Origin: a virus
Lineage: Duplodnaviria; Heunggongvirae; Uroviricota; Caudoviricetes
DNA: 9,003 nucleotides
Direction: 5' to 3' (one strand)
Virus record (IMG/VR): IMGVR_UViG_2667527608_000007
Below, one piece after another: positions 1 to 9,003 of this stretch (the first letter of the stretch is position 1; the number at the start of each line of letters is the position of its first letter). The notes below the pieces were generated by a model. That model saw nothing but the letters and a program-made list of their open reading frames with translations. It was not told the origin of the DNA and did no database searches. Position numbers and translations under genes: made by a program.

Positions 1-84
1 TACAATCGTCAGCGTCGTCACTCTCGTCTGGGGAATATCTCCCCGGCAGCCTTCAGGGAAAAATATCATCAGATGGCTGCTTAA
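1..84 (+). CDS. IS3-family transposase (OrfB), C-terminal 27 codons only; 5' part lies outside the window
   Basis: Open frame from position 1 to TAA at 82-84; translation YNRQRRHSRLGNISPAAFREKYHQMAA. Confidence 0.6.
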   Translation, partial: YNRQRRHSRLGNISPAAFREKYHQMAA

Positions 85-127
85 AAAAAGAACAAATGGT
101 AGTGTCCGCTATTGCCAGTACACCTCA
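1..127 (+). mobile_element. Right end of an IS3-family insertion sequence (3' end of transposase gene plus terminal inverted repeat ending ...CACCTCA at 127); element continues to the left of the window
   Basis: Frame 1 translates as YNRQRRHSRLGNISPAAFREKYHQMAA*, the typical C-terminal tail of rve/DDE transposases of the IS3 family (HSxLGxxSPxxF). About 40 bp after the stop, GTGTCCGCTATTGCCAGTACACCTCA resembles an IS3-type terminal repeat ending in CA, as I recall it. No large ORF lies to the right for ~640 bp. Confidence 0.6.
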
Positions 128-772
128 AATACAGGGTTACTGATAGTGACACCAATTTCAAAACAACCTTCAGACGTATTAACGTTTGGTAATAACGTTT
201 CCATTATCGCGTCCTCAACAATGAATTTTGTGATGCAGTGCCTGGTGCCTCCAGGTGACGTTAACCAGTTAACAATTAACGCCGGATACAGAGAATCCAA
301 CCATAACACTGTTTTTGGTTTTAACTGTTCCGCGTGCGCTTAGCCGCATTCACCGCATCACAAAATTCACTTTAAAAAGGGCGGCAGAGCAGTCACGGAG
401 TAAAACTGATACCGCCAAACGTCACCAGAAAATTGATAACAGAGGGCGTTGCAGCGGGGTTGTCACTTAAGCGTATGGTCAACCTGACAACCCGGTGTCC
501 TCAACGGGGGAAGGAATAACCCCGCCATACTTACCGCCGCGCCATTTCGCGGATTGCCACAACCGGAAGCGCACGGTCGACGAAAATTTAACGACAGGCT
601 ATCTATGAACCAGCTACCTCGCCGTGCGCTTTCGCGTTATGGTCTGACTTTTCAGGGAAATATCCTTTCAGTAAACTGTCAGTGCCGGATGCTCACCCGT
701 GTCCGGCGCAAGCACTCCACCTCACCCGTGGAGAACTCCTTAATTACCAACCTTAGCTTCGTTGGTTAGCTA

Positions 773-991
773 TTAACGCGGGTATGTAATCATTCTGGCA
801 ATGGTTAATGCCGCTGCTTTTTCCAGATTGGTGATATCCTGCTCCAGAGAGGACAGATTTTCAGCCTGCTTAGCCCTGACTTCATTAGCCCATTTCAGAT
901 CCTGCGCTGCATTAATTTTCTGGTGCATCCACTCATAAAGTTCATCATTGGTATAGTCTGGCGCGATGATGACGGGTTCTCGTTTCTGCAT
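773..991 (-). CDS. Small hypothetical protein (72 aa) of the leftward early operon; function unknown
   Basis: ORF with a GAGGA ribosome-binding site 7 nt upstream of the ATG (minus strand, around 997-1001); same orientation and close packing with the two ORFs upstream of it. No family recognised. Confidence 0.5.
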   Translation of the reverse strand: MQKREPVIIAPDYTNDELYEWMHQKINAAQDLKWANEVRAKQAENLSSLEQDITNLEKAAALTIARMITYPR

Positions 992-1020
992 ACTGATTCC
1001 TCGCGGTGCTGTTTCGCTTA

Positions 1021-1149
1021 TCAGCCATTAGATTTTGCCGAACTGGAAAGCACCTGTTTAAATTCGTTGAAGCTGTGAGCTTCTTCGCCTTCGGCAAGGC
1101 CTTCGAAGTATTCTTCGTAAGCCTTTTCCATGATTGTGTCGAAATCCAT
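1021..1149 (-). CDS. Small acidic hypothetical protein (42 aa, MDFDTIMEKAYEEYFEGLAEGEEAHSFNEFKQVLSSSAKSNG)
   Basis: Not in the supplied ORF track (below its length cut-off). ATG at 1149..1147 follows a GGTGGG ribosome-binding site and sits 1 nt after the stop of the preceding ORF (TGA-T-ATG), suggesting translational coupling. Position is comparable to the small ydaG/ydaF genes of Rac, but identity is unverified. Confidence 0.4.
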   Translation of the reverse strand: MDFDTIMEKAYEEYFEGLAEGEEAHSFNEFKQVLSSSAKSNG

Positions 1150-1150
1150 A

Positions 1151-1387
1151 TCACCCACCTGAATTTCTTTCCAGCCAGCGACGCGCTCCAGATTCGGTTT
1201 TAAACGTTTTGCTTTTGGTATACGTCATTGCGGTGAACGTACCGTACTGGTTGGGGAACACGCCACATACCAGAGATTCGCTGTTGCCAAGATCGATAGT
1301 ATCCATGCTGACCTCATTTCCCCTTAACGCCGGGGTAGCGGAACAAAAACCTGCTGCATAGTTATTAAAGTTGAACCCTGCCGTCAT
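1151..1387 (-). CDS. Hypothetical protein (78 aa), first gene of the leftward early operon downstream of the PL-like promoter
   Basis: ORF begins about 95 nt downstream of the minus-strand promoter predicted at 1516..1488; weak GAGG upstream; stop abuts the next ORF's start. Confidence 0.45.
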   Translation of the reverse strand: MTAGFNFNNYAAGFCSATPALRGNEVSMDTIDLGNSESLVCGVFPNQYGTFTAMTYTKSKTFKTESGARRWLERNSGG

Positions 1388-1487
1388 GTTCTTACGCCTC
1401 GGGCTGGCTACTTAACCCGTGACCACTGCCTGGTAACTCGAGGTATTGCCCTGTATTGTGTGGGACGGGATGGGTTGGTATGGGAAA

Positions 1488-1555
1488 ACTATAGGAAATG
1501 CCTAATTACTTGTCAATAGGCTATGCCTAATAATTTGGGCGCAACCTAATAGGTG
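1488..1555 (-). promoter_or_regulatory. OL/PL-like region: leftward promoter (-35 TTGACA at 1516..1511, 17-bp spacer, -10 TATAGT at 1493..1488 on the minus strand) overlapped by repressor operator repeats
   Basis: ATAGGCTATGCCTAAT at 1516-1531 is the exact reverse complement of ATTAGGCATAGCCTAT at 2155-2170. Further half-site copies occur at 1491-1506 (ATAGGAAATGCCTAAT) and about 1546-1555 (CCTAATAGG). The promoter hexamers were read directly from the sequence. Confidence 0.6.
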
Positions 1556-1624
1556 ATGGTTTGTGGAAGAGGTAGTAGGAGTTAACTAACGGGAACTAGG
1601 AATTTCCCGTCGGACCATATAAGT

Positions 1625-2101
1625 TTAAGTTCCTGTCTTGGTGATGTTCTGGCTTTTCCGTTTTGATTCTTGATTTTTCAGATAGTTAGCTACCTTCATT
1701 TCCATTGCGGCAATGTAGGCGCGAACGTCATGATCAACCCAACTAGGCTCCGTAGCATTTCCAGATAAGATGAAAGCCACAATTGCTCTTTTTTCATCAG
1801 AGGCGGCTTGATAAAGGCTGTTTATGTCTAAAAGTTCACTTTTTGTATCTGAAGTGGATGGGGTTGGTATGGGGTATTCGTTAAGCCCCCAATGCTCTGG
1901 ACCAACCACATCAGAAAAGAAACGCCATAGTTCTGGAAGTTTGTCTTTACTTATCGAACCTTTCTTAATCCAGTCATGGATTGATGGTGGTTGGACTTTG
2001 AAATGACGTGCGATTTCCGCCTTTGATTTGACGGCTCCTGATGCAATTTTTTTGTTAATGGCCTGCTCTATCGCTCGGCCTAAGTCTTTACCACTAAGCA
2101 T
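1625..2101 (-). CDS. racR: CI-like prophage repressor with N-terminal helix-turn-helix (158 aa); resembles Rac prophage RacR
   Basis: N-terminal HTH segment (SKAEIARHFKVQPPSIHDWIKKG). Divergently oriented to a Cro-like gene and flanked on both sides by shared operator repeats. The 158-aa length and sequence match my recollection of E. coli RacR. The ORF is visibly more AT-rich than its neighbours. Confidence 0.75.
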   Translation of the reverse strand: MLSGKDLGRAIEQAINKKIASGAVKSKAEIARHFKVQPPSIHDWIKKGSISKDKLPELWRFFSDVVGPEHWGLNEYPIPTPSTSDTKSELLDINSLYQAASDEKRAIVAFILSGNATEPSWVDHDVRAYIAAMEMKVANYLKNQESKRKSQNITKTGT

Positions 2102-2126
2102 TGCTTAATAGTCTCCTATGCGCATC

Positions 2127-2198
2127 GCGTTAGGCAATCCCTACTCTCGATGTATTAGGCATAGCCTATTGACAATTTCATTAGGCTAAGCCTAATAT
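2127..2198 (+). promoter_or_regulatory. OR/PR-like region: rightward promoter (-35 TTGACA 2169-2174, 18-bp spacer, -10 TAATAT 2193-2198) with operators
   Basis: A perfect 17-bp palindrome ATTAGGCTAAGCCTAAT (2180-2196) lies between -35 and -10. An imperfect copy ATTAGGCATAGCCTAT is at 2155-2170 and a half-site GTTAGGCAAT near 2129-2138. Drives the Cro-like gene starting at 2226. Confidence 0.65.
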
Positions 2199-2225
2199 TG
2201 TTGCGTGTTTTTTGGAGTTCATTCG

Positions 2226-2549
2226 ATGAAAAAAGATAACTATTCATTCAAACGAGCTTGTGCTGTTGTCGGTGGGCAATCAGCAATGGCTAGGCTTTTA
2301 GGTGTATCTCCTCCAAGCGTAAATCAATGGATCAAAGGTGTACGTCAGTTACCTGCTGAGAGATGTCCTGCGATTGAACGAGCAACAAAAGGTGGTGTTC
2401 TGTGTGAAGAACTTCGTCCTGATGTTGATTGGACATACTTACGACGCTCGTCATGTTATTCGCAGAATATGTCGATGAAGCAACCAAATGACGAAAACGA
2501 TCATACCCGAAGCATCAAGAGGCAAATGATTCATGAAAATCAAACATGA
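2226..2549 (+). CDS. ydaS: Cro-like HTH transcriptional regulator (YdaS-like), 107 aa from ATG 2226
   Basis: GGAG ribosome-binding site at 2214-2217, 8 nt before ATG 2226. HTH segment QSAMARLLGVSPPSVNQWIKGVRQLP. The ORF track's start at 2205 is a GTG extension with no ribosome-binding site. The 3' end overlaps the next gene by 17 nt. Confidence 0.7.
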   Translation: MKKDNYSFKRACAVVGGQSAMARLLGVSPPSVNQWIKGVRQLPAERCPAIERATKGGVLCEELRPDVDWTYLRRSSCYSQNMSMKQPNDENDHTRSIKRQMIHENQT

Positions 2550-2958
2550 GCACATCCGCATGGCGATGAATGCCTGGGCATACCCTGATGGTGAGAAAGT
2601 TCCTGCAGCTGAAATAGCCCGGACTTATTTCGAACTGGGGATGACGTTCCCTGAACTGTACGACGACAGCCATCCGGAAGCCCTGGCCCGTAATACCCAG
2701 AAAATTTTCCGTTGGCTGGATAAAGACACCCCTGATGCTGTTGAAAAAATGCAGGCTCTGTTACCGGCGATCGAAAAGGCGATGCCGCCTTTGCTGGTGG
2801 CCCGTATGCGCAGCCACAGTTCTGAATATTACCGTGAGATCGTCGAACGGAGGGATCGGCTGGTGAAGGATGTCGATGATTTTGTTGCGTCAGCGGTTGT
2901 TTTGTATGACCAGATGAATCGCGGCGGCCCGGCAGGGAATGCTGTGGTGATGCACTAA
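2533..2958 (+). CDS. ydaT: YdaT-like protein (141 aa), partner of the Cro-like gene; CII-like regulator role is an inference
   Basis: AAGAGG upstream of ATG 2533. Size, position and sequence resemble Rac YdaT. Co-directional with and overlapping the Cro-like gene. Confidence 0.6.
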   Translation: MKIKHEHIRMAMNAWAYPDGEKVPAAEIARTYFELGMTFPELYDDSHPEALARNTQKIFRWLDKDTPDAVEKMQALLPAIEKAMPPLLVARMRSHSSEYYREIVERRDRLVKDVDDFVASAVVLYDQMNRGGPAGNAVVMH

Positions 2959-2980
2959 AAGCACGGTGTTCGGGGGTTTT

Positions 2981-3943
2981 ATGAGCAGCAAGCTTCATGG
3001 TCTTGTCTGGGAAGGGTGCGCCTTCACCGGCATGATCTTATCCAGGGTGGCGGTTATGGCCCGTCTTGCAGACTACAGCAATGACGAGGGCGTGTCATGG
3101 CCTGCCATTGAAACTATCCGGCGTCAGATCGGTGCAAGAAGTGAATCCACAGTGAAATCGGCTATTGCAGAACTGGCGAAAGAGGGCTGGCTGACGAAGG
3201 AAGAGCGTAAGGTCGGTGGGCGTAATGTAAGCAATATCTATCGGCTTAATGTGGAAAAACTCGAAGCAGCTGCGGCGGCGGCGCGTGAGTCATATAAACC
3301 GAAAAGAAAAATTAGCCCGGCAAAAAATGACCCGTTAACAGTTGACCCGTCAAATATTGACCCCTCAACGGTTGACCCGTCAAATTTTGATGGATCAACT
3401 GTTGATAAAAAACTGCCGATTAGGGGGGCGATGATTGACCCCGATCCGTCAGTATTAAAACCTGATCCGTCAGATAAAAGATCTTCTTGTCCGGACGCTT
3501 CGCAACCGGACCCGCAGACGGCTGAACAGGATTTTTTAACCCGACACCCTGACGCGGTTGTGTTCAGTGCGAAAAAACGCCAGTGGGGAAGTCAGGAAGA
3601 TTTGGTGTGCGCACAGTGGATCTGGGGACGAATCGTGAGTCTTTACGAGCAGGCGGCCAGCGATGATGGCGAGATCACTAGACCGAAAGAACCCAACTGG
3701 ACAGCATGGGCCAATGACGTTCGCACAATGCGGATGCTGGATGGCAGAACTCACAGACAAATTTGTGAAATGTTTGGGCGTCTCCAGCGGGATTCGTTCT
3801 GGGTAAAAAACATCATGAGTCCGGCAAAACTCCGGGAAAAATGGGATGAACTGGTTATCCGCCTGGGGCGTTCGCCTGCGCAGCGTTGCGTGAATCACAT
3901 TTCTGAACCGGACACTGAAATACCGCCGGGATTCAGGGGGTGA
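2981..3943 (+). CDS. Lambda-O-like replication initiator (320 aa from ATG 2981): winged-helix N-terminal domain, repetitive linker, C-terminal domain
   Basis: N-terminal HTH/winged-helix region (ARLADYSNDEGVSWPAIETIRRQIGARSESTVKSAIAELAKEGWL). The linker DPLTVDPSNIDPSTVDPSNFDGSTVD is encoded by the tandem 15-bp iterons. Lies immediately upstream of the DnaC-like loader. The ORF track's 2966 start is a GTG extension. Confidence 0.7.
   Translation: MSSKLHGLVWEGCAFTGMILSRVAVMARLADYSNDEGVSWPAIETIRRQIGARSESTVKSAIAELAKEGWLTKEERKVGGRNVSNIYRLNVEKLEAAAAAARESYKPKRKISPAKNDPLTVDPSNIDPSTVDPSNFDGSTVDKKLPIRGAMIDPDPSVLKPDPSDKRSSCPDASQPDPQTAEQDFLTRHPDAVVFSAKKRQWGSQEDLVCAQWIWGRIVSLYEQAASDDGEITRPKEPNWTAWANDVRTMRMLDGRTHRQICEMFGRLQRDSFWVKNIMSPAKLREKWDELVIRLGRSPAQRCVNHISEPDTEIPPGFRG
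3328..3417. repeat. Tandem 15-bp iterons (about 6 copies, consensus TTGACCCGTCAAnnn), putative prophage origin of replication inside the initiator gene
   Basis: Copies start at 3328 (ATGACCCGTTAACAG), 3343 (TTGACCCGTCAAATA), 3358 (TTGACCCCTCAACGG), 3373 (TTGACCCGTCAAATT), 3388 (TTGATGGATCAACTG) and 3403 (TTGATAAAAAACTGC). Degenerate GAYCCGTCAG copies follow at about 3436-3475. Each core TGACCCGTCA is internally near-palindromic. Confidence 0.7.
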
Positions 3944-3949
3944 CGTGTC

Positions 3950-4690
3950 ATGAAAAACATTGCGGCAGTTGGGGTTCTTGAACGTATTCGCAGACTTGCA
4001 CCACAGGGGGCGGTTCCACCGTACCGGACGGTGGAGGAGTGGCGGGAATGGCAACTTGCTGAAGGACGAAAACGCAGCGAGGAGATTAACCGCCTGAATC
4101 ATCAGGTGCGGGTTGAAAAAATCCTGAACCGTGCGGGCATCCAGCCGCTTCACAGGAAGTGCTCATTCGGGAACTACCGGGTGCAGAACGACGGTCAGCG
4201 CCATGCTCTGAGCCAGGCGAAATCCATTGCCGATGAATTGATGACCGGATGTACAAACTTCGTGTTCAGCGGTAAACCTGGTACCGGTAAAAATCACCTG
4301 GCAGCAGCGATTGGCAATCGGCTGATGGCGAAGGGGAGAAGCGTGATTATCGTCACCGTGTCCGATGTCATGAGCGTGTTGCATGACGGCTACGACAACG
4401 GCCAGTCCGGGGAAAAATTTTTACAGGAGCTTTGTGGAGTTGACCTTCTGGTCCTTGATGAAATTGGCATGCAGCGGGATACGCGCAACGAGCAGGTCAC
4501 GCTGAACCAGATAGTCGACCGCAGAACGGCTTCGATGCGTAGTGTCGGAATGCTGACGAACCTGAATCACGCAGCGATGAGCACACTCCTCGGAGATCGG
4601 GTGATGGACCGTATGACCATGAATGGTGGTCGTTGGGTGAATTTTAACTGGGAGAGCTGGCGGTCAAACGTTGGACGTCAGGGTATGTGA
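3950..4690 (+). CDS. DnaC/IstB-like AAA+ helicase loader (246 aa); YdaV-like
   Basis: Walker A-like GKPGTGKNHLAAAIG and Walker B LLVLDEIG. Start is 7 nt after the initiator stop, with GGGGG upstream. Typical replication-module partner. Confidence 0.85.
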   Translation: MKNIAAVGVLERIRRLAPQGAVPPYRTVEEWREWQLAEGRKRSEEINRLNHQVRVEKILNRAGIQPLHRKCSFGNYRVQNDGQRHALSQAKSIADELMTGCTNFVFSGKPGTGKNHLAAAIGNRLMAKGRSVIIVTVSDVMSVLHDGYDNGQSGEKFLQELCGVDLLVLDEIGMQRDTRNEQVTLNQIVDRRTASMRSVGMLTNLNHAAMSTLLGDRVMDRMTMNGGRWVNFNWESWRSNVGRQGM

Positions 4691-4715
4691 GAATTTTTGA
4701 CGAGGTAAATTTTCG

Positions 4716-5486
4716 ATGGAAACTGTATTGCATGCACTGAAAGCGATGGGAAAAGCCAATTCTGTTGAACTGGCGGCGCGGCTTGATATCAGCCGTGAAG
4801 AAGTTCTTAACGAACTGTGGGAACTCAAAAAAAATGGCGTTGTTGATAAAACGGGTCACACCTGGTTTCTGGCTGTCGAAGGTGAAGCCGGGGTAACCGA
4901 AGGGCAGGCACTACAACCTGAAGCGCCGGATGTGGTAACCGAAGAGGTCGCTCCAAAAGTTACCGCAGACATGATGGTTGAGTTTATCGGTCAGGATGGT
5001 GCTAAAACGTGTGAGGAACTGGCGGGTAAGTTCGGCGTCAGTACTCGCAAGGTTGCTTCCACGCTGGCGGTGGTAACCGCAACGGGGCGGCTGGCACGCG
5101 TTAATCAGAACGGTAAATTTCGTTACTGCATGTCGGGGGGTAATTTACCAGCAGATCCGAAAGCCGCGCCGGTAACGAAAAATGATGGTAAGGCCTTTCC
5201 TCAGCCAGCAGGTGCTGCGTTACCAGTCCGGGAAGCCGCAACACAGGAAGAAATTAAAACAGAAACTGTGGCGGACATTGTGCAGCCGTTGCTATCGTTT
5301 ACCGAAACGCAAGCAGATGAGCTGATTTTTCCGTCCCTGCGCAGGGCAAACCTGGCGCTGCGCAGGGCGAAAAGTGATGTTCAGAAGTGGGAGCGAGTCT
5401 GCGCCGCGCTGCGGGAGCTGAACAAGCACCGGGATATTGTTCGACAGATTACTGATTCTTCCCGCCGTGTTGTATCGGAAAAGTGA
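4716..5486 (+). CDS. Hypothetical prophage protein with two winged-helix-like repeats (256 aa; DUF1627-like)
   Basis: Two similar HTH-like segments (ANSVELAARLDISREEVLNELWELKKNGVV and KTCEELAGKFGVSTRKVASTLAVVTATGRLARV); GAGG ribosome-binding site upstream. Confidence 0.6.
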   Translation: METVLHALKAMGKANSVELAARLDISREEVLNELWELKKNGVVDKTGHTWFLAVEGEAGVTEGQALQPEAPDVVTEEVAPKVTADMMVEFIGQDGAKTCEELAGKFGVSTRKVASTLAVVTATGRLARVNQNGKFRYCMSGGNLPADPKAAPVTKNDGKAFPQPAGAALPVREAATQEEIKTETVADIVQPLLSFTETQADELIFPSLRRANLALRRAKSDVQKWERVCAALRELNKHRDIVRQITDSSRRVVSEK

Positions 5487-5501
5487 TAGCCGGAGGCGCT
5501 T

Positions 5502-5897
5502 ATGGCGAAACCTTTTACACACGAACAGCGTGAAGAACTGAAGGCCCGAATTATCGGGCTGGTACGCAAAAATGAACGCATGACGATATCACAACTGGAG
5601 AGAGCGACGGGAGCAGGCTGGCATTCAGTCAGACGTTGCCTTGTGGATGTACTGGCTTGTGGCGATTTATACATGCCCGGTAAATACGGTGTTTTTACAT
5701 CAGAACAGGTGTATCGCGTATGGCGTAAGGCAGCGGAGAAAGCAACCGACCAGACATTGATTCGAAAGTTACCAGACGGAGAAATACGCCGCTACGACAG
5801 ACAACAGAACATAATCTGTGGCGAGTGCCGGAAGAGTGAAGTTATGCTGCGTGTACTGGCGTTCTATCAGGGCAATTTTCAGGAGGCGGTACTGTGA
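5502..5897 (+). CDS. Hypothetical protein (131 aa), possible HTH near the N-terminus
   Basis: Intact ORF tightly packed with its neighbours (stop overlaps the next start, GTGA); segment MTISQLERATGAGWHSVRRCL looks HTH-like. No family recognised with confidence. Confidence 0.5.
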   Translation: MAKPFTHEQREELKARIIGLVRKNERMTISQLERATGAGWHSVRRCLVDVLACGDLYMPGKYGVFTSEQVYRVWRKAAEKATDQTLIRKLPDGEIRRYDRQQNIICGECRKSEVMLRVLAFYQGNFQEAVL

Positions 5898-6538
5898 GTG
5901 AATTAGCTATCAGGCTTCAATTGTCGCTGGCATTCGCATCAAAGGAGAATGAGATGATCACTTTTACAAAAGAGCAGTTAATCAGTCATGTTAGTGAAAA
6001 TGTAAAGGCGATGAAATTTGCAGTAAAACAGACAGTATTCAAAAATTCTCTCGAGGCAATTGAGTTGGATTTAGCACTGGCCCTTGTTGCTCAGGCTTCG
6101 CTGGAAGCAGAGCCCGTGCTTTATATGAATCGATTTACCGGAAAGACATTCTCACTGGAAGAGCAACCCGGTGCTGATAAGGAACCGGAAATATACGTGC
6201 CGCTATATGCTGCCCCGCCAGACAGCGCCGCCATGCTTCAGGCTGGAAACTTTCGGGAAAATAAGGGTTCGTCAACCAATAATTTTCGGGAAATCTCGGA
6301 AACGTCAACCAACTATCCGGTAACTCCGGATGGTTGGATAAGCTGTAGTGAGCGAATGCCGGATGATGGTCAGCACGTAATTATTTTATGTGATGGCGCA
6401 TTCGTTCTTTATGCGCAATATCGAGACGGTGAGTTTTTTGATGTAGTCCGTAATGGTGATGAATTTTTCGAAACACAGAGCCGCAATGTAACCGACTGGA
6501 TGCCGCTACCAGAACCGCCGCAGGAGGTGCGCCAATGA
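5894..6538 (+). CDS. Hypothetical prophage protein with C-terminal DUF551-like domain (214 aa from GTG 5894; alternative ATG at 5954)
   Basis: C-terminal segment DGWISCSERMPDDG...TDWMPLPEPP is typical of DUF551 phage proteins. AGGAGG at 5881-5886 precedes GTG 5894; AAGGAG precedes ATG 5954. Confidence 0.6.
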   Translation: MSELAIRLQLSLAFASKENEMITFTKEQLISHVSENVKAMKFAVKQTVFKNSLEAIELDLALALVAQASLEAEPVLYMNRFTGKTFSLEEQPGADKEPEIYVPLYAAPPDSAAMLQAGNFRENKGSSTNNFREISETSTNYPVTPDGWISCSERMPDDGQHVIILCDGAFVLYAQYRDGEFFDVVRNGDEFFETQSRNVTDWMPLPEPPQEVRQ

Positions 6539-6618
6539 TCTGGCCTGAAGCCTTTGCAATTACAGGCGTTGCTATAGCTATTGATTTTTTAGTATATGTT
6601 ATTTGTCGGTGGGGGTAA
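6535..6618 (+). CDS. Micro-ORF, 27 aa predicted single-TM peptide (MIWPEAFAITGVAIAIDFLVYVICRWG)
   Basis: Perfect AGGAGG at 6522-6527, 7 nt before the ATG, which overlaps the upstream stop (ATGA). Hydrophobic core of about 18 residues. Below the ORF-track cut-off. Confidence 0.4.
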   Translation: MIWPEAFAITGVAIAIDFLVYVICRWG

Positions 6619-6653
6619 AAACGTTCGCCGGGATTCACACCAAAGGAGGGAAT

Positions 6654-6758
6654 ATGTCGGATGATATTTCACTGGCAATGGAAGGTGCTCTGGCTGTTAT
6701 TGCTGTTGTGGGCGTTTACTGCCTGGTTGTGTTTTTGATGGATCGACTAGGGAACTGA
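6654..6758 (+). CDS. Micro-ORF, 34 aa predicted single-TM peptide (MSDDISLAMEGALAVIAVVGVYCLVVFLMDRLGN)
   Basis: AAAGGAGGG at 6642-6650 immediately upstream of the ATG; about 22 consecutive hydrophobic residues; below the ORF-track cut-off. Confidence 0.45.
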   Translation: MSDDISLAMEGALAVIAVVGVYCLVVFLMDRLGN

Positions 6759-6766
6759 ATTCATTA

Positions 6767-6788
6767 CGATATGGGAATTCCCATATCG
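6767..6788. promoter_or_regulatory. 22-bp perfect palindrome CGATATGGGAATTCCCATATCG, 13 bp upstream of the predicted hok promoter -35
   Basis: Exact dyad symmetry read from the sequence; no T-tract follows, so it is not a classical intrinsic terminator. Confidence 0.5.
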
Positions 6789-6800
6789 GGTAAAAACGGT

Positions 6801-6828
6801 TTGCGGTAAAGCGAGAGTTAAGTAGAAT
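6801..6828 (+). promoter_or_regulatory. Putative promoter of the mok/hok mRNA (-35 TTGCGG 6801-6806, 16-bp spacer, -10 TAGAAT 6823-6828)
   Basis: It sits just upstream of the 5' element (6833-6846) that is complementary to the mRNA 3' end, giving a transcript of about 420 nt ending at the terminator at 7254. Confidence 0.45.
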
Positions 6829-6889
6829 TGCTGCGGGTGCTTGAGGCTGTCTGCCTCGGGCATGCCACCGTAAGGCAGACAGAGAAAAG

Positions 6890-6955
6890 CCCCAGTTAAC
6901 ATTACGCGTCCTGCAAGACGCCTAACATTAATCTGAGGCCAATTTCATGCTAGAC
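6890..6955 (-). ncRNA. Putative Sok-like antisense RNA overlapping the mok translation-initiation region (predicted from a promoter only)
   Basis: Minus-strand -35 TTGCCT (6990..6985), 17-bp spacer, -10 TAACCT (6967..6962) would start a transcript antisense to the mok ribosome-binding site (GAGG 6934-6937) and start codon (6947). The 3' end is not defined. Confidence 0.25.
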
Positions 6956-7159
6956 ATATGTAGGTTAGCCTCTTACGCGCCGAAAGGCAAGGAGAAGCAG
7001 GCTATGAAGCAGCAAAAGGCGATGTTAATCGCCCTGATCGTCATCTGTATCACCGTCATAGTGACGGCACTGGTAACGAGGAAAGACCTCTGCGAGGTAC
7101 GAATCCGAACCGGCCAGACGGAGGTCGCTGTCTTCACAGCTTACGAACCTGAGGAGTAA
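6947..7159 (+). CDS. mok: Mok-like reading frame (70 aa), in frame with and containing hok
   Basis: MLDICRLASYAPKGKEKQAMKQQ... closely parallels my recollection of E. coli MokC (MLNTCRVPLTDRKVKEKRAMKQH...), where mok is an in-frame N-terminal extension of hok. GAGG ribosome-binding site 9 nt upstream. Confidence 0.6.
   Translation: MLDICRLASYAPKGKEKQAMKQQKAMLIALIVICITVIVTALVTRKDLCEVRIRTGQTEVAVFTAYEPEE
7004..7159 (+). CDS. hok: Hok/Gef-family type I toxin (51 aa)
   Basis: MKQQKAMLIALIVICITVIVTALVTRKDLCEVRIRTGQTEVAVFTAYEPEE is near-identical to my recollection of HokC/Gef and HokD/RelF. AAGGAG ribosome-binding site at 6988-6993; single TM helix; conserved Cys and the RTGQTEVAVF motif. Confidence 0.9.
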   Translation: MKQQKAMLIALIVICITVIVTALVTRKDLCEVRIRTGQTEVAVFTAYEPEE

Positions 7160-7228
7160 GAGACCCGGCGAGGGAGAAATCCCTCGCCACCTCTGATGAA
7201 TCAGGCATCCTCAACGCACCCGCACTTA

Positions 7229-7254
7229 ACCCGCTTCGGCGGGTTTTGTTTTTT
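7229..7254 (+). terminator. Rho-independent terminator of the hok transcript (stem ACCCGC/GCGGGT with TTCG loop, then T-run)
   Basis: ACCCGCTTCGGCGGGTTTTGTTTTTT read directly. An additional perfect 9-bp hairpin with GAAA loop (GGCGAGGGA-GAAA-TCCCTCGCC) lies at 7167-7188, just after the hok stop. Confidence 0.7.
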
Positions 7255-7326
7255 CCTGGCATTCTGGTTTACAATTCGCACGCCAGCCTGAACAACTGGC
7301 ACCTGCTGCGCCAGCAGAGACAACCG

Positions 7327-7605
7327 ATGGCGCACGATACCAAATTATACAATTCTGATGATTCTGCCGTCTTTGCCAGCAGGCGCGGACGGTGTTTTCA
7401 CGCATTCAAATCTGACTGGTACCAGCATCCCCCATGCACTGAAGAACAGGCCGAATGGCTCATTCAGTGTTACCGCAGGCGCGGATGCGAGGTTAAAAAA
7501 GCCCTTAGCCTCGACTACCGTCACTGGATAATCTCCGTCAGGCTCCCTTACTCCGAACGGCCACCGCGTCCGTCCCGCACATTCCAGCAACGGATCTGGA
7601 GGTAA
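7327..7605 (+). CDS. Small Cys-rich hypothetical protein (92 aa from ATG 7327), in the position occupied by rem in the Qin prophage
   Basis: ORF downstream of the hok terminator. The track's 7246 start would overlap the terminator T-run, so ATG 7327 is preferred. Four cysteines (C-x15-C-x10-C-x6-C). Weak ribosome-binding site. Confidence 0.45.
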   Translation: MAHDTKLYNSDDSAVFASRRGRCFHAFKSDWYQHPPCTEEQAEWLIQCYRRRGCEVKKALSLDYRHWIISVRLPYSERPPRPSRTFQQRIWR

Positions 7606-7606
7606 T

Positions 7607-8656
7607 GTGCGGGTATTACTTCGACCTGTTCTGGTACCGGAACTCGGTCTGGTTATCGTTAAGCCAGGCCGTGAATCAATGTCAGCATTCCATAACGGCA
7701 GAATACTGGTGGAGCCGGAACCAAAAAGCATGCGAGCTCTGCCGTCCGGGGTTGTACCTGCCGTTCACCAGCCGCTGGCGGAAGATAAATCACTACTGCC
7801 ATTTTTCAGCGATGAGCGGGTGAGCCGTGCTGCGGGTGGCGCTGGTGCACTGTCTGACTGGTTATTACGTCACGTGAAATCCTGCCAGTGGCTACACGGT
7901 GATTATCATCACAGCGAAACCGTCATTCACCGTTACGGTACCGGCGCAATGGTGTTGTGCTGGCACTGCGACAACCAGTTGCGTGACCAGACATCCGAAT
8001 CACTCGAGCAACTTGCTCATCAAAACCTGTCAGCATGGATGATTGACGTCATCGGTCACGCAATAAGCGGTACGCAGGAGCGTGAATTATCTCTGGCTGA
8101 ATTATCCTGGTGGGCGGTCCGCAATCAGGTGGCGGACGCGCTACCGGAAGCGGTATTACGTCGTTCGCTGGGGTTGCGTGCGGAAAAAATCCGCTCCATG
8201 TACCGTGAAAGCGACATCGTACCGGGAGAGCAGACCGCCACCAGCATACTGAAACAGCGCACAAAAAATCTTGCGCCGCTGCCTCACGCCCACCAGCAAC
8301 AGAACCCACCACAGGAAAAGACGGTGGTCAGCATTGCCGTTGATCCTGAGTCTCCGGAATCTTTCATGAAACGACCTAAACGTCGCCGCTGGGTTAACGA
8401 GAAATACACTCGCTGGGTGAAGACACAGCCGTGTGCGTGTTGTGGTAAGCCAGCCGACGATCCCCATCACCTGATTGGTCATGGTCAGGGCGGAATGGGG
8501 ACAAAATCTCACGATATTTTCACGCTACCGCTGTGTCGGGAGCATCACAACGAGCTTCATGCGGATCCGCTGGCGTTCGAAGAAAAGCATGGTTCTCAGG
8601 TTGATTTAATTTTTCGTTTTCTTGATCACGCCTTTGCAACTGGCGTGCTTGGGTAA
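7607..8656 (+). CDS. ydfU: DUF968/YdfU-like prophage protein with C-terminal HNH-like Cys/His motif (349 aa from GTG 7607)
   Basis: C-terminal CACCGKPADDPHHLIGHGQGGMGTKSHDIFTLPLCREHHNELH. Size matches Qin YdfU as I recall it. GGAGG lies only 4 nt upstream of the GTG, so the start is uncertain (alternative ATG at 7679). Confidence 0.65.
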   Translation: MRVLLRPVLVPELGLVIVKPGRESMSAFHNGRILVEPEPKSMRALPSGVVPAVHQPLAEDKSLLPFFSDERVSRAAGGAGALSDWLLRHVKSCQWLHGDYHHSETVIHRYGTGAMVLCWHCDNQLRDQTSESLEQLAHQNLSAWMIDVIGHAISGTQERELSLAELSWWAVRNQVADALPEAVLRRSLGLRAEKIRSMYRESDIVPGEQTATSILKQRTKNLAPLPHAHQQQNPPQEKTVVSIAVDPESPESFMKRPKRRRWVNEKYTRWVKTQPCACCGKPADDPHHLIGHGQGGMGTKSHDIFTLPLCREHHNELHADPLAFEEKHGSQVDLIFRFLDHAFATGVLG

Positions 8657-8668
8657 AAGAGGTGACTG

Positions 8669-9003
8669 ATGCTCATAGATTTGGTTTTACCTTACCCGCC
8701 GACGGTGAACACTTACTGGCGACGCCGTGGCAGCACATATTTTATCTCGGAGGAGGGAAAGCGTTATCGCCGGGCTGTGGCGCTTATTGTTCGCCAGCAG
8801 CGGCTGAAATTAAGCCTGTCCGGAAGGCTGGCGATAAAGATTATTGCCGAGCCACCGGATAAGCGCCGCCGTGACTTGGACAATATTCTGAAAGCGCCGC
8901 TGGATGCGCTGACGCATGCGGGGTTGCTAATGGACGATGAGCAGTTTGATGAAATCAATATCGTTCGTGCTCAGCCAGTATCTGGTGGACGTCTGGGGGT
9001 GAA
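8669..9003 (+). CDS. rusA: RusA-family Holliday-junction resolvase, N-terminal 111 codons; 3' end beyond the window
   Basis: MLIDLVLPYPPTVNTYWRRRGSTYFISEEGKRYRRAVALIVRQQ...PPDKRRRDLDNILKAPLDALTHAGLLMDDEQFDEINIVRAQPVSGGRLGV carries the RusA hallmark segments. The frame stays open to the window end and was verified codon by codon. The track's 8662..8862 ORF is in another frame. Confidence 0.85.
   Translation, partial: MLIDLVLPYPPTVNTYWRRRGSTYFISEEGKRYRRAVALIVRQQRLKLSLSGRLAIKIIAEPPDKRRRDLDNILKAPLDALTHAGLLMDDEQFDEINIVRAQPVSGGRLGV

Follow-up and report, generated by a model that had tools for sequence, protein, structure and literature searches.

The dicBF operon of the K-12 prophage Qin contains a long untranslated region in which dicF lies and which is natively non-coding (PMC5069750, PMC10448788). 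DicF has no internal promoter (PMC10448788, PMC9438474) and arises by processing of the polycistronic transcript, in which RNase III gives a 190-nt species and RNase E the 53-nt form (PMC10448788). It has been shown for the K-12 operon that a leftward promoter makes this polycistronic RNA once the repressor is relieved, that DicF represses ftsZ, manX, and other mRNAs, and that read-through passes a leader of 174 nt into dicB, which encodes a MinC-dependent division inhibitor. The 190-nt DicF species has been known from Northern blots since 1990. Two further systems come close: in the K-12 Rac prophage an sRNA detected by RIL-seq, KilS, lies upstream of kilR, and the ban leader of phage P1 contains a "dicF-like region" (AF234173, 68472-68573).

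We compared with these systems a stretch of 9,003 nt from a Caudoviricetes record (IMGVR_UViG_2667527608_000007), the whole of which we call the window. Both 127-1400 and 127-9003 show 100% identity to a prophage of Escherichia coli O103:H2 str. 12009 (whose annotation names dicB, ydfC, DUF1391, and racR) and of a dozen other STEC genomes. The minus strand of the intact relative reads racR, DUF1391 (ydfA), a ydfB-like gene, ydfC, a stretch with no CDS, dicB, DUF1482 (ydfD), exonuclease, xis, and int. This left operon is shared by K-12 Qin, where dicF lies at 1649382-1649434, and in a three-way alignment the whole stretch is ∼97% identical to the Qin dicBF operon and shares its layout: ydfC, a 340-nt spacer, dicF (identical over the 53 nt and the terminator), the 174-nt leader, and dicB. 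The window differs from Qin in that its dicB is cut after codon 26 and in that its immunity region (1625-2958) is of the Rac type, with a RacR-like repressor (1625-2101, minus strand), a YdaS/Cro-like protein (2205-2549, plus strand), and YdaT (2533-2958, plus strand) in place of DicA/DicC. The prophage is thus a mosaic of both types of K-12 cryptic prophage, combining Rac-type immunity with a Qin-type left operon (ydfABC-dicF-dicB).

An earlier note on this DNA, made from the letters of the window, had described the prophage as Rac-like, which is right for the immunity genes, whereas the left operon is of the Qin/dicBF and not of the kil/sieB type. Its expectation of further leftward early genes agrees with the intact relative, in which ydfD, the gene of a RecE-like exonuclease, xis, and int come next. 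The three small leftward open reading frames (ORFs), taken there to be the truncated remains of a longer operon, are nothing of the kind: these are ydfA, ydfB, and ydfC, which are intact and promoter-proximal (table 1). It should be noted that the ydfA frame (1151-1387, minus strand) is open up to an ATG at 1387, corresponding to 78 aa compared with the annotated 51 aa starting at 1306. In the rightward region, a hok/sok type I toxin–antitoxin locus was observed at 6835-7009 and 6947-7159 (both plus strand); it scores 114.3 bits with the Rfam sok model and overlaps a 70-aa ORF in the mok/hok frame with a Pfam HOK_GEF match.

Table 1. Features of the left part of the window; strands are given relative to the window, and a slash within a sequence marks a boundary.
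Feature	Position	Strand	Remark
IS600 right end (IS3 family)	1..127	+	last 27 orfB codons and terminal inverted repeat; ends ...ACACCTCA
Presumptive 3-bp target-site duplication AAT	128..130	.	inferred from TAA around the reference IS600 copy
31-aa chimeric ORF	109..204	-	dicB codons 1-26, then EVYWQ and stop from the IS600 end
dicF-dicB intergenic leader	172..381	-	distant relative of Rfam STnc100, below gathering threshold
dicF	374..431	-	53-nt DicF sRNA (431..379) and terminator U-tract (378..374); identical to K-12 dicF
Single-stranded AU-rich linker, 16 nt	432..447	-	sequence ..UGUUAUCAAU/UUUCUGG
Conserved four-helix-junction RNA domain, ∼116 nt	448..563	-	5' domain of the 190-nt DicF species
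P0	563-556 / 455-448	-	
P1	552-548 / 541-537	-	
P2	524-520 / 509-505	-	
P3 (stem of the earlier note)	493-485 / 465-457	-	
Pseudoknot, GUAUGG / CCAUAC in the P3 loop	530-525 / 478-473	-	
Long near-perfect helix, probable RNase III substrate	558..642	-	core arms 634-622 / 576-564
ydfC-proximal untranslated region	643..772	-	hairpins 766..746, 733..715, 707..684
ydfC, 72 aa	773..991	-	intact
ydfB homologue, 42 aa as annotated in relatives	1021..1149	-	intact
ydfA homologue (DUF1391), 51 aa	1151..1306	-	intact

The left edge of the window is the end of an insertion sequence. IS600 is an IS3-family element often found in Shigella and STEC. Across the last 127 bp of the element, the window has at least 98.5% nucleotide identity to IS600 in 3450 E. 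coli records, in which the annotation reads "IS3-like element IS600 family transposase"; the likeness includes the terminal ...CCTCA and the C-terminus of orfB, whose stop codon is at 82-84 (plus strand). The 27-aa transposase tail gives a weak match to Pfam rve_2, and 1-84 reaches at least 98.5% nucleotide identity to annotated IS600 transposase genes. The terminal inverted repeat (∼101-127) equals the right inverted repeat of a reference IS600 copy (L151), which reads ...ctgTAA/TGAGGTAGCC...ACACCTCA/TAAtat, with TG...CA termini (TGAGG...CCTCA), imperfect inverted repeats pairing over 28 nt with 71% complementarity, and a 3-bp TAA target duplication. This layout places the end of the element exactly at base 127, so that the IS3-family terminus proposed for 1-127 in the earlier note holds to the base. 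Only the right end of IS600 lies in the window; the second AAT copy would sit past the left end, outside it.

The gene that IS600 entered is dicB, which bears out the proposal that an insertion sequence end adjoins, and truncates, the leftward early operon of a lambdoid prophage. An alignment of the 128-770 region with intact prophages, suggested in the same note, revealed the dicB remnant beside IS600: where intact copies read ...CCT GTA TTT ACT GAA..., the window reads ...CCT GTA TT/T GAG GTG TAC TGG CAA TAG, with the break directly after ...CCTGTATT. The match to the uninterrupted prophages overlaps the element by one base, and of dicB codons 1-26 (204..127) the last base is supplied by the element, leaving 77 nt (204..128) as the remnant made by the insertion. 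The short ORFs of this region had been described as devoid of ribosome-binding sites; the chimeric ORF 204..109 nevertheless has a Shine–Dalgarno sequence (GAGGA, 216..212) 7 nt upstream of its ATG and a Pfam DicB match (PF05358, 53.6 bits) covering only profile positions 1-26 of 62. The full-length DicB of ∼62 aa is absent, whereas relatives carry an intact dicB of 62 aa, and the dicB of the window is, judged by its sequence, a truncated pseudogene. There are zero substitutions relative to uninterrupted copies over 8.9 kb, which indicates that the insertion is recent. It is also private: none of the sets searched (5426 complete E. coli genomes, the GTDB representatives, IMG/VR, and the JGI metagenomes) contained the IS600::dicB junction. 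Instead of a simple insertion, an IS-mediated deletion or inversion may have removed the rest of dicB; as the left end of IS600 and the DNA beyond it are outside the window, these events look alike here.

Between IS600 and ydfC lie the ∼640 bp for which the earlier note offered two origins, a gene degraded through the insertion or a source of untranslated RNA. An untranslated RNA is indeed encoded there: the Rfam DicF model (RF00039) matches 430..379 (minus strand) with 76.7 bits (gathering score 48) over model positions 1-52 of 52, the intrinsic terminator combines a hairpin of −15.9 kcal/mol with a TTTTT run at 378-374, and the match lies inside a dicBF operon between ydfC and dicB. [quoted passage not shown] Downstream of dicF, the leader is the most widely conserved block upstream of dicB and kil genes, and the same leader precedes the kil genes of Rac-type phages. 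The STnc100 model (RF02076) aligns over its full length to 381..172 with E = 9e-6 and shares the GGUGAAU and CACCUGGAGGCACCAGGCAC elements with it, at a score of 34.5 bits that is below the gathering score of 47 and thus indicates a diverged relative, not a member by Rfam's criterion. Upstream of dicF, no Rfam hit was found between 432 and 772 (4227 models, E ≤ 10), and ARAGORN detected no tRNA or tmRNA gene. The statement that the segment holds no convincing ORF was correct insofar as neither ORF searches, nor the annotation of relatives and of K-12, nor a codon-position test revealed an intact conserved protein gene in 128-772; the segment is nonetheless not free of genes, given dicF at 431..379. 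The 640 bp without ORFs are accounted for by the published untranslated, dicF-containing stretch of this cell-division-inhibitor operon.

Taken together, codon 26 of dicB has very probably been interrupted by a very recent IS600 insertion, in a prophage with Rac immunity and a Qin operon, and 128-772 is a native, transcribed but untranslated part of that operon rather than debris; we hold this reading with high confidence. That the whole of 128-770 is instead the frameshifted remnant of a protein gene, decayed after the insertion, seems to us extremely improbable. The 77 nt adjoining IS600 truly are a truncated gene, dicB', and to this extent the idea of a gene remnant created by the element stands; the other ∼565 bp are untouched, since all of 128-772 is 100% identical to prophages without the element. 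Moreover, the 97% identical K-12 stretch carries no CDS, 1-nt indels separate relatives within the spacer, and the conserved blocks covary as RNA helices. Hardly more credible is a real antisense gene on the plus strand, the ORF 605-769 (54 aa; PGAP hypothetical protein WP_001358071.1), which is the sole CDS annotated anywhere within 205-772 and which PGAP calls in some genomes only. It is annotated in O103:H2 12009 and open in 18 of 20 distinct close homologues, but these are copies of ∼97% identity, K-12 has no such annotation, and the frame runs antisense to a structured RNA. We rejected it on the pattern of substitutions, which number 8, 42, and 21 at codon positions 1, 2, and 3 and nearly all alter the protein: the dominance of second positions indicates that there is no purifying selection. 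Just after ydfC, the two hairpins at 733-715 and 707-684 (minus strand) both contain CACGGGUGAG, and an AAGGAG at 741-736 precedes the former; in other prophage types, the loops of the hairpins after ydfC differ (ACGGAUAAGA) and the CCGGA/UCCGG stem is kept.

The native reading of 128-772 leaves the region upstream of dicF, where the earlier note had seen a 9-bp stem, GGGTTGTCA/TGACAACCC, at 457-465 with 485-493. Its position is exact and all nine pairs are complementary, around a loop of 19 nt. Dinucleotide shuffling of 128-775 produces a perfect 9-bp inverted repeat with a loop of 3-60 nt in 9.8% of cases, which makes the stem weak evidence by itself; its reality rests on covariation in relatives. 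BLAST searches showed that 563-440 moves as one block, with ∼90% identity in Stx2c phages, phage Ayreon, and others, all of which lack an Rfam-level DicF, and with 77% identity in the "dicF-like region" of the P1 ban leader. Copies were collected from IMG/VR, and their fold was analyzed in an alignment of 40 and later 71 distinct sequences. Under a model of four helices with a pseudoknot (table 1), 95.5% of the cells are paired, compared with 34-55% when the partners are slid; nine pairs have changed on both sides, a level that 1 of 500 shuffles matched, and RNAalifold independently recovers P0-P3. P3, the stem of the earlier note, shows U-A to C-G changes at two positions; in the P1-type copies, U-A to C-G change is also seen in the pseudoknot. 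In some types, the MAFFT and covariance model (CM) alignments are one column out of register at P2, a variable hairpin; every variant was therefore folded on its own, and the hairpin is kept with at least six different stem sequences. These results support, in the nucleotide comparisons made here, the formation of a conserved four-helix junction with a pseudoknot and compensatory changes by 563..448, although the figures are modest and no proof, because the sequences are related and one of the alignments is model-fitted. The junction domain is absent from Rfam and apparently has not been described before: we found no description in the literature covered, a scope to which Faubladier and Bouche (1994) and the P1 genome paper did not belong.

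The domain recurs in many lambdoid phages as well as in the P1 ban leader. In all 53 distinct contexts, a terminator (hairpin and T-run) follows it at a distance of 40-88 nt; the terminator hairpins have at least eight different sequences, and we conclude that the conserved unit comprises domain, linker, and terminator. The P1 copy scores 87.9 bits with the CM, has compensatory changes in P2, P3, and the pseudoknot, and is likewise followed by a terminator; by Rfam score, the "dicF-like region" is not a DicF homologue. Its setting is also different from that in the window: a C1-controlled promoter directly precedes it, tRNA genes and ban follow, and it is not part of a lambdoid PL-type operon. 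K-12 Rac resembles the window in its architecture: an Hfq-bound sRNA that ends in an intrinsic terminator precedes the conserved AAAGTGAATTTTGTGATGCGGTGAATGCGG... leader, behind which a small division inhibitor directed at FtsZ is encoded. In contrast, the seed and hairpin sequences of KilS differ from those of DicF, the Rfam DicF model gives no match, KilR takes the place of DicB as the inhibitor, and Rac lacks the four-helix domain. In Rac (L152, 7406-7503, minus strand), KilS stands where the window has the junction domain and DicF (563-374), and the sequence reads ...CCGGTTGT/AAATAACGACATTG..., as if ∼110 nt between the P0 arms had been removed. Variants without the 5' arms of P0 and P1 were also observed on two IMG/VR contigs (L131, 1633-1755; L138, 5222-5344), where the RNase III helix upstream, ...CATAACGCGAAA, is fused straight to ...TGGCGCGGCGG. 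This fusion looks like a recombination between the similar motifs AACGCGAAAG (window ∼630) and TCCGCGAAAT (window ∼550), and the similarity of the two motifs suggests an old internal duplication.

The domain would also fit the known processing of DicF. Upstream of it, 642..558 is predicted to fold into a helix of −37.4 kcal/mol (z = −3.78), the 3' arm of which takes in, and so sequesters, the 5' arm of P0. A consensus promoter scan upstream of K-12 ydfA yielded no usable anchor for the published "813/814" cleavage numbering, and the 190-nt length was used in its place, so that the cut positions of RNase III and RNase E in window coordinates derive from RNA lengths. A cut by RNase III at ∼564/563 would start the longer species at ∼563, giving an RNA that ends at 374 and has the published RNase III-dependent length (PMC10448788): 563..374 is exactly 190 nt, and the K-12 counterpart spans 189 nt. 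We infer from this that the 190-nt species consists of the junction domain, the AU-rich linker, and DicF, and that the RNase E cut making the 5' end of DicF falls at 432/431 (AAU/UUU).

The operation of the locus could then be as follows. Relief of the repressor would let the leftward promoter make the polycistronic RNA; RNase III would cut the helix 642..558, releasing the ∼190-nt RNA and probably also freeing the 5' arm of P0, so that the junction can close; RNase E would then cut the linker and, with the terminator at 378-374 setting the 3' end, yield the 53-nt Hfq-dependent DicF. Read-through past the terminator would normally run through the conserved leader into dicB. Here, it would hit IS600 and enter it antisense to the transposase, with the 31-aa peptide (26 of the 62 DicB residues) as the sole possible product, and ydfD, exo, xis, and int, if still present, would presumably be uncoupled from the promoter. 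The production of DicF should be unaffected: the DNA from promoter to terminator is unchanged, and DicF should therefore still form upon derepression.

Whether the domain 563..448 is more than a by-product of processing is a matter that adds to this explanation and does not replace it. It might be a cis element acting on the adjacent terminator, either a put-like antiterminator or a riboswitch-like sensor, or else an autonomous protein- or RNA-binding domain of prophage RNAs of ∼160-200 nt; we regard this as doubtful, if worth considering. Antiterminator RNAs of the HK022 put type act on RNA polymerase, and in riboswitches a ligand alters read-through of a downstream terminator; the likeness of the domain to either we take to be conceptual, only its position relative to terminators being known. 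In favor of a function are the loops and junctions, nearly invariant across the Qin-type, P1, and Salmonella phage copies while the helices covary, the breakpoints of mosaics, which fall at the edge of the domain (query 210, window 563), and the invariable presence of a terminator downstream; in addition, the P1 copy begins ∼25 nt after the start of Pban, and a unit of ∼185 nt would be the primary transcript there. Against these stands Rac, which has the sRNA and the leader (KilS, kilR) with the domain cleanly missing, so that the domain is dispensable for making such an sRNA; the sequences compared are, moreover, closely related and their covariation statistics modest. The single-sequence minimum free energy (MFE) structure of the 190-nt RNA, where GGCGCGGCGG of the domain is base-paired to the terminator's 3' arm, would also speak for a function, but this pairing is impossible in P1-type copies; as it comes from one MFE structure only, we do not endorse an antiterminator-like pairing of domain and terminator. 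In the same MFE structure (374-563, minus strand), GGCGCGGCGGUAAGUAUGGCGGGG of the domain pairs with the 3' arm of the DicF terminator, replacing P0/P1, which may represent an alternative conformer, albeit one that P1-type copies cannot adopt. A function of its own might, at rather low probability, concern read-through into dicB, kil, or ban, the release of the sRNA by RNase E, or the binding of a host factor, with the freeing of the P0 5' arm by RNase III as a folding switch.

The apparently empty prophage segment is thus a textbook dicF locus, and its explanation draws on what was already known, namely dicF, dicB, and IS600, together with an insertion allele specific to the strain; the junction domain is the sole lead worth following. 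In one STEC-like strain, the DicB toxin appears to have been lost to an IS600 hop and the DicF sRNA kept, and the loss of DicB agrees with the broader pattern that hosts disarm toxic genes of their prophages. The 190-nt DicF species has a strongly conserved, covarying 5' domain, which P1 and other phages carry in the absence of DicF. If the domain does have a function, it would represent a new element controlling early-operon termination or sRNA maturation in temperate phages.
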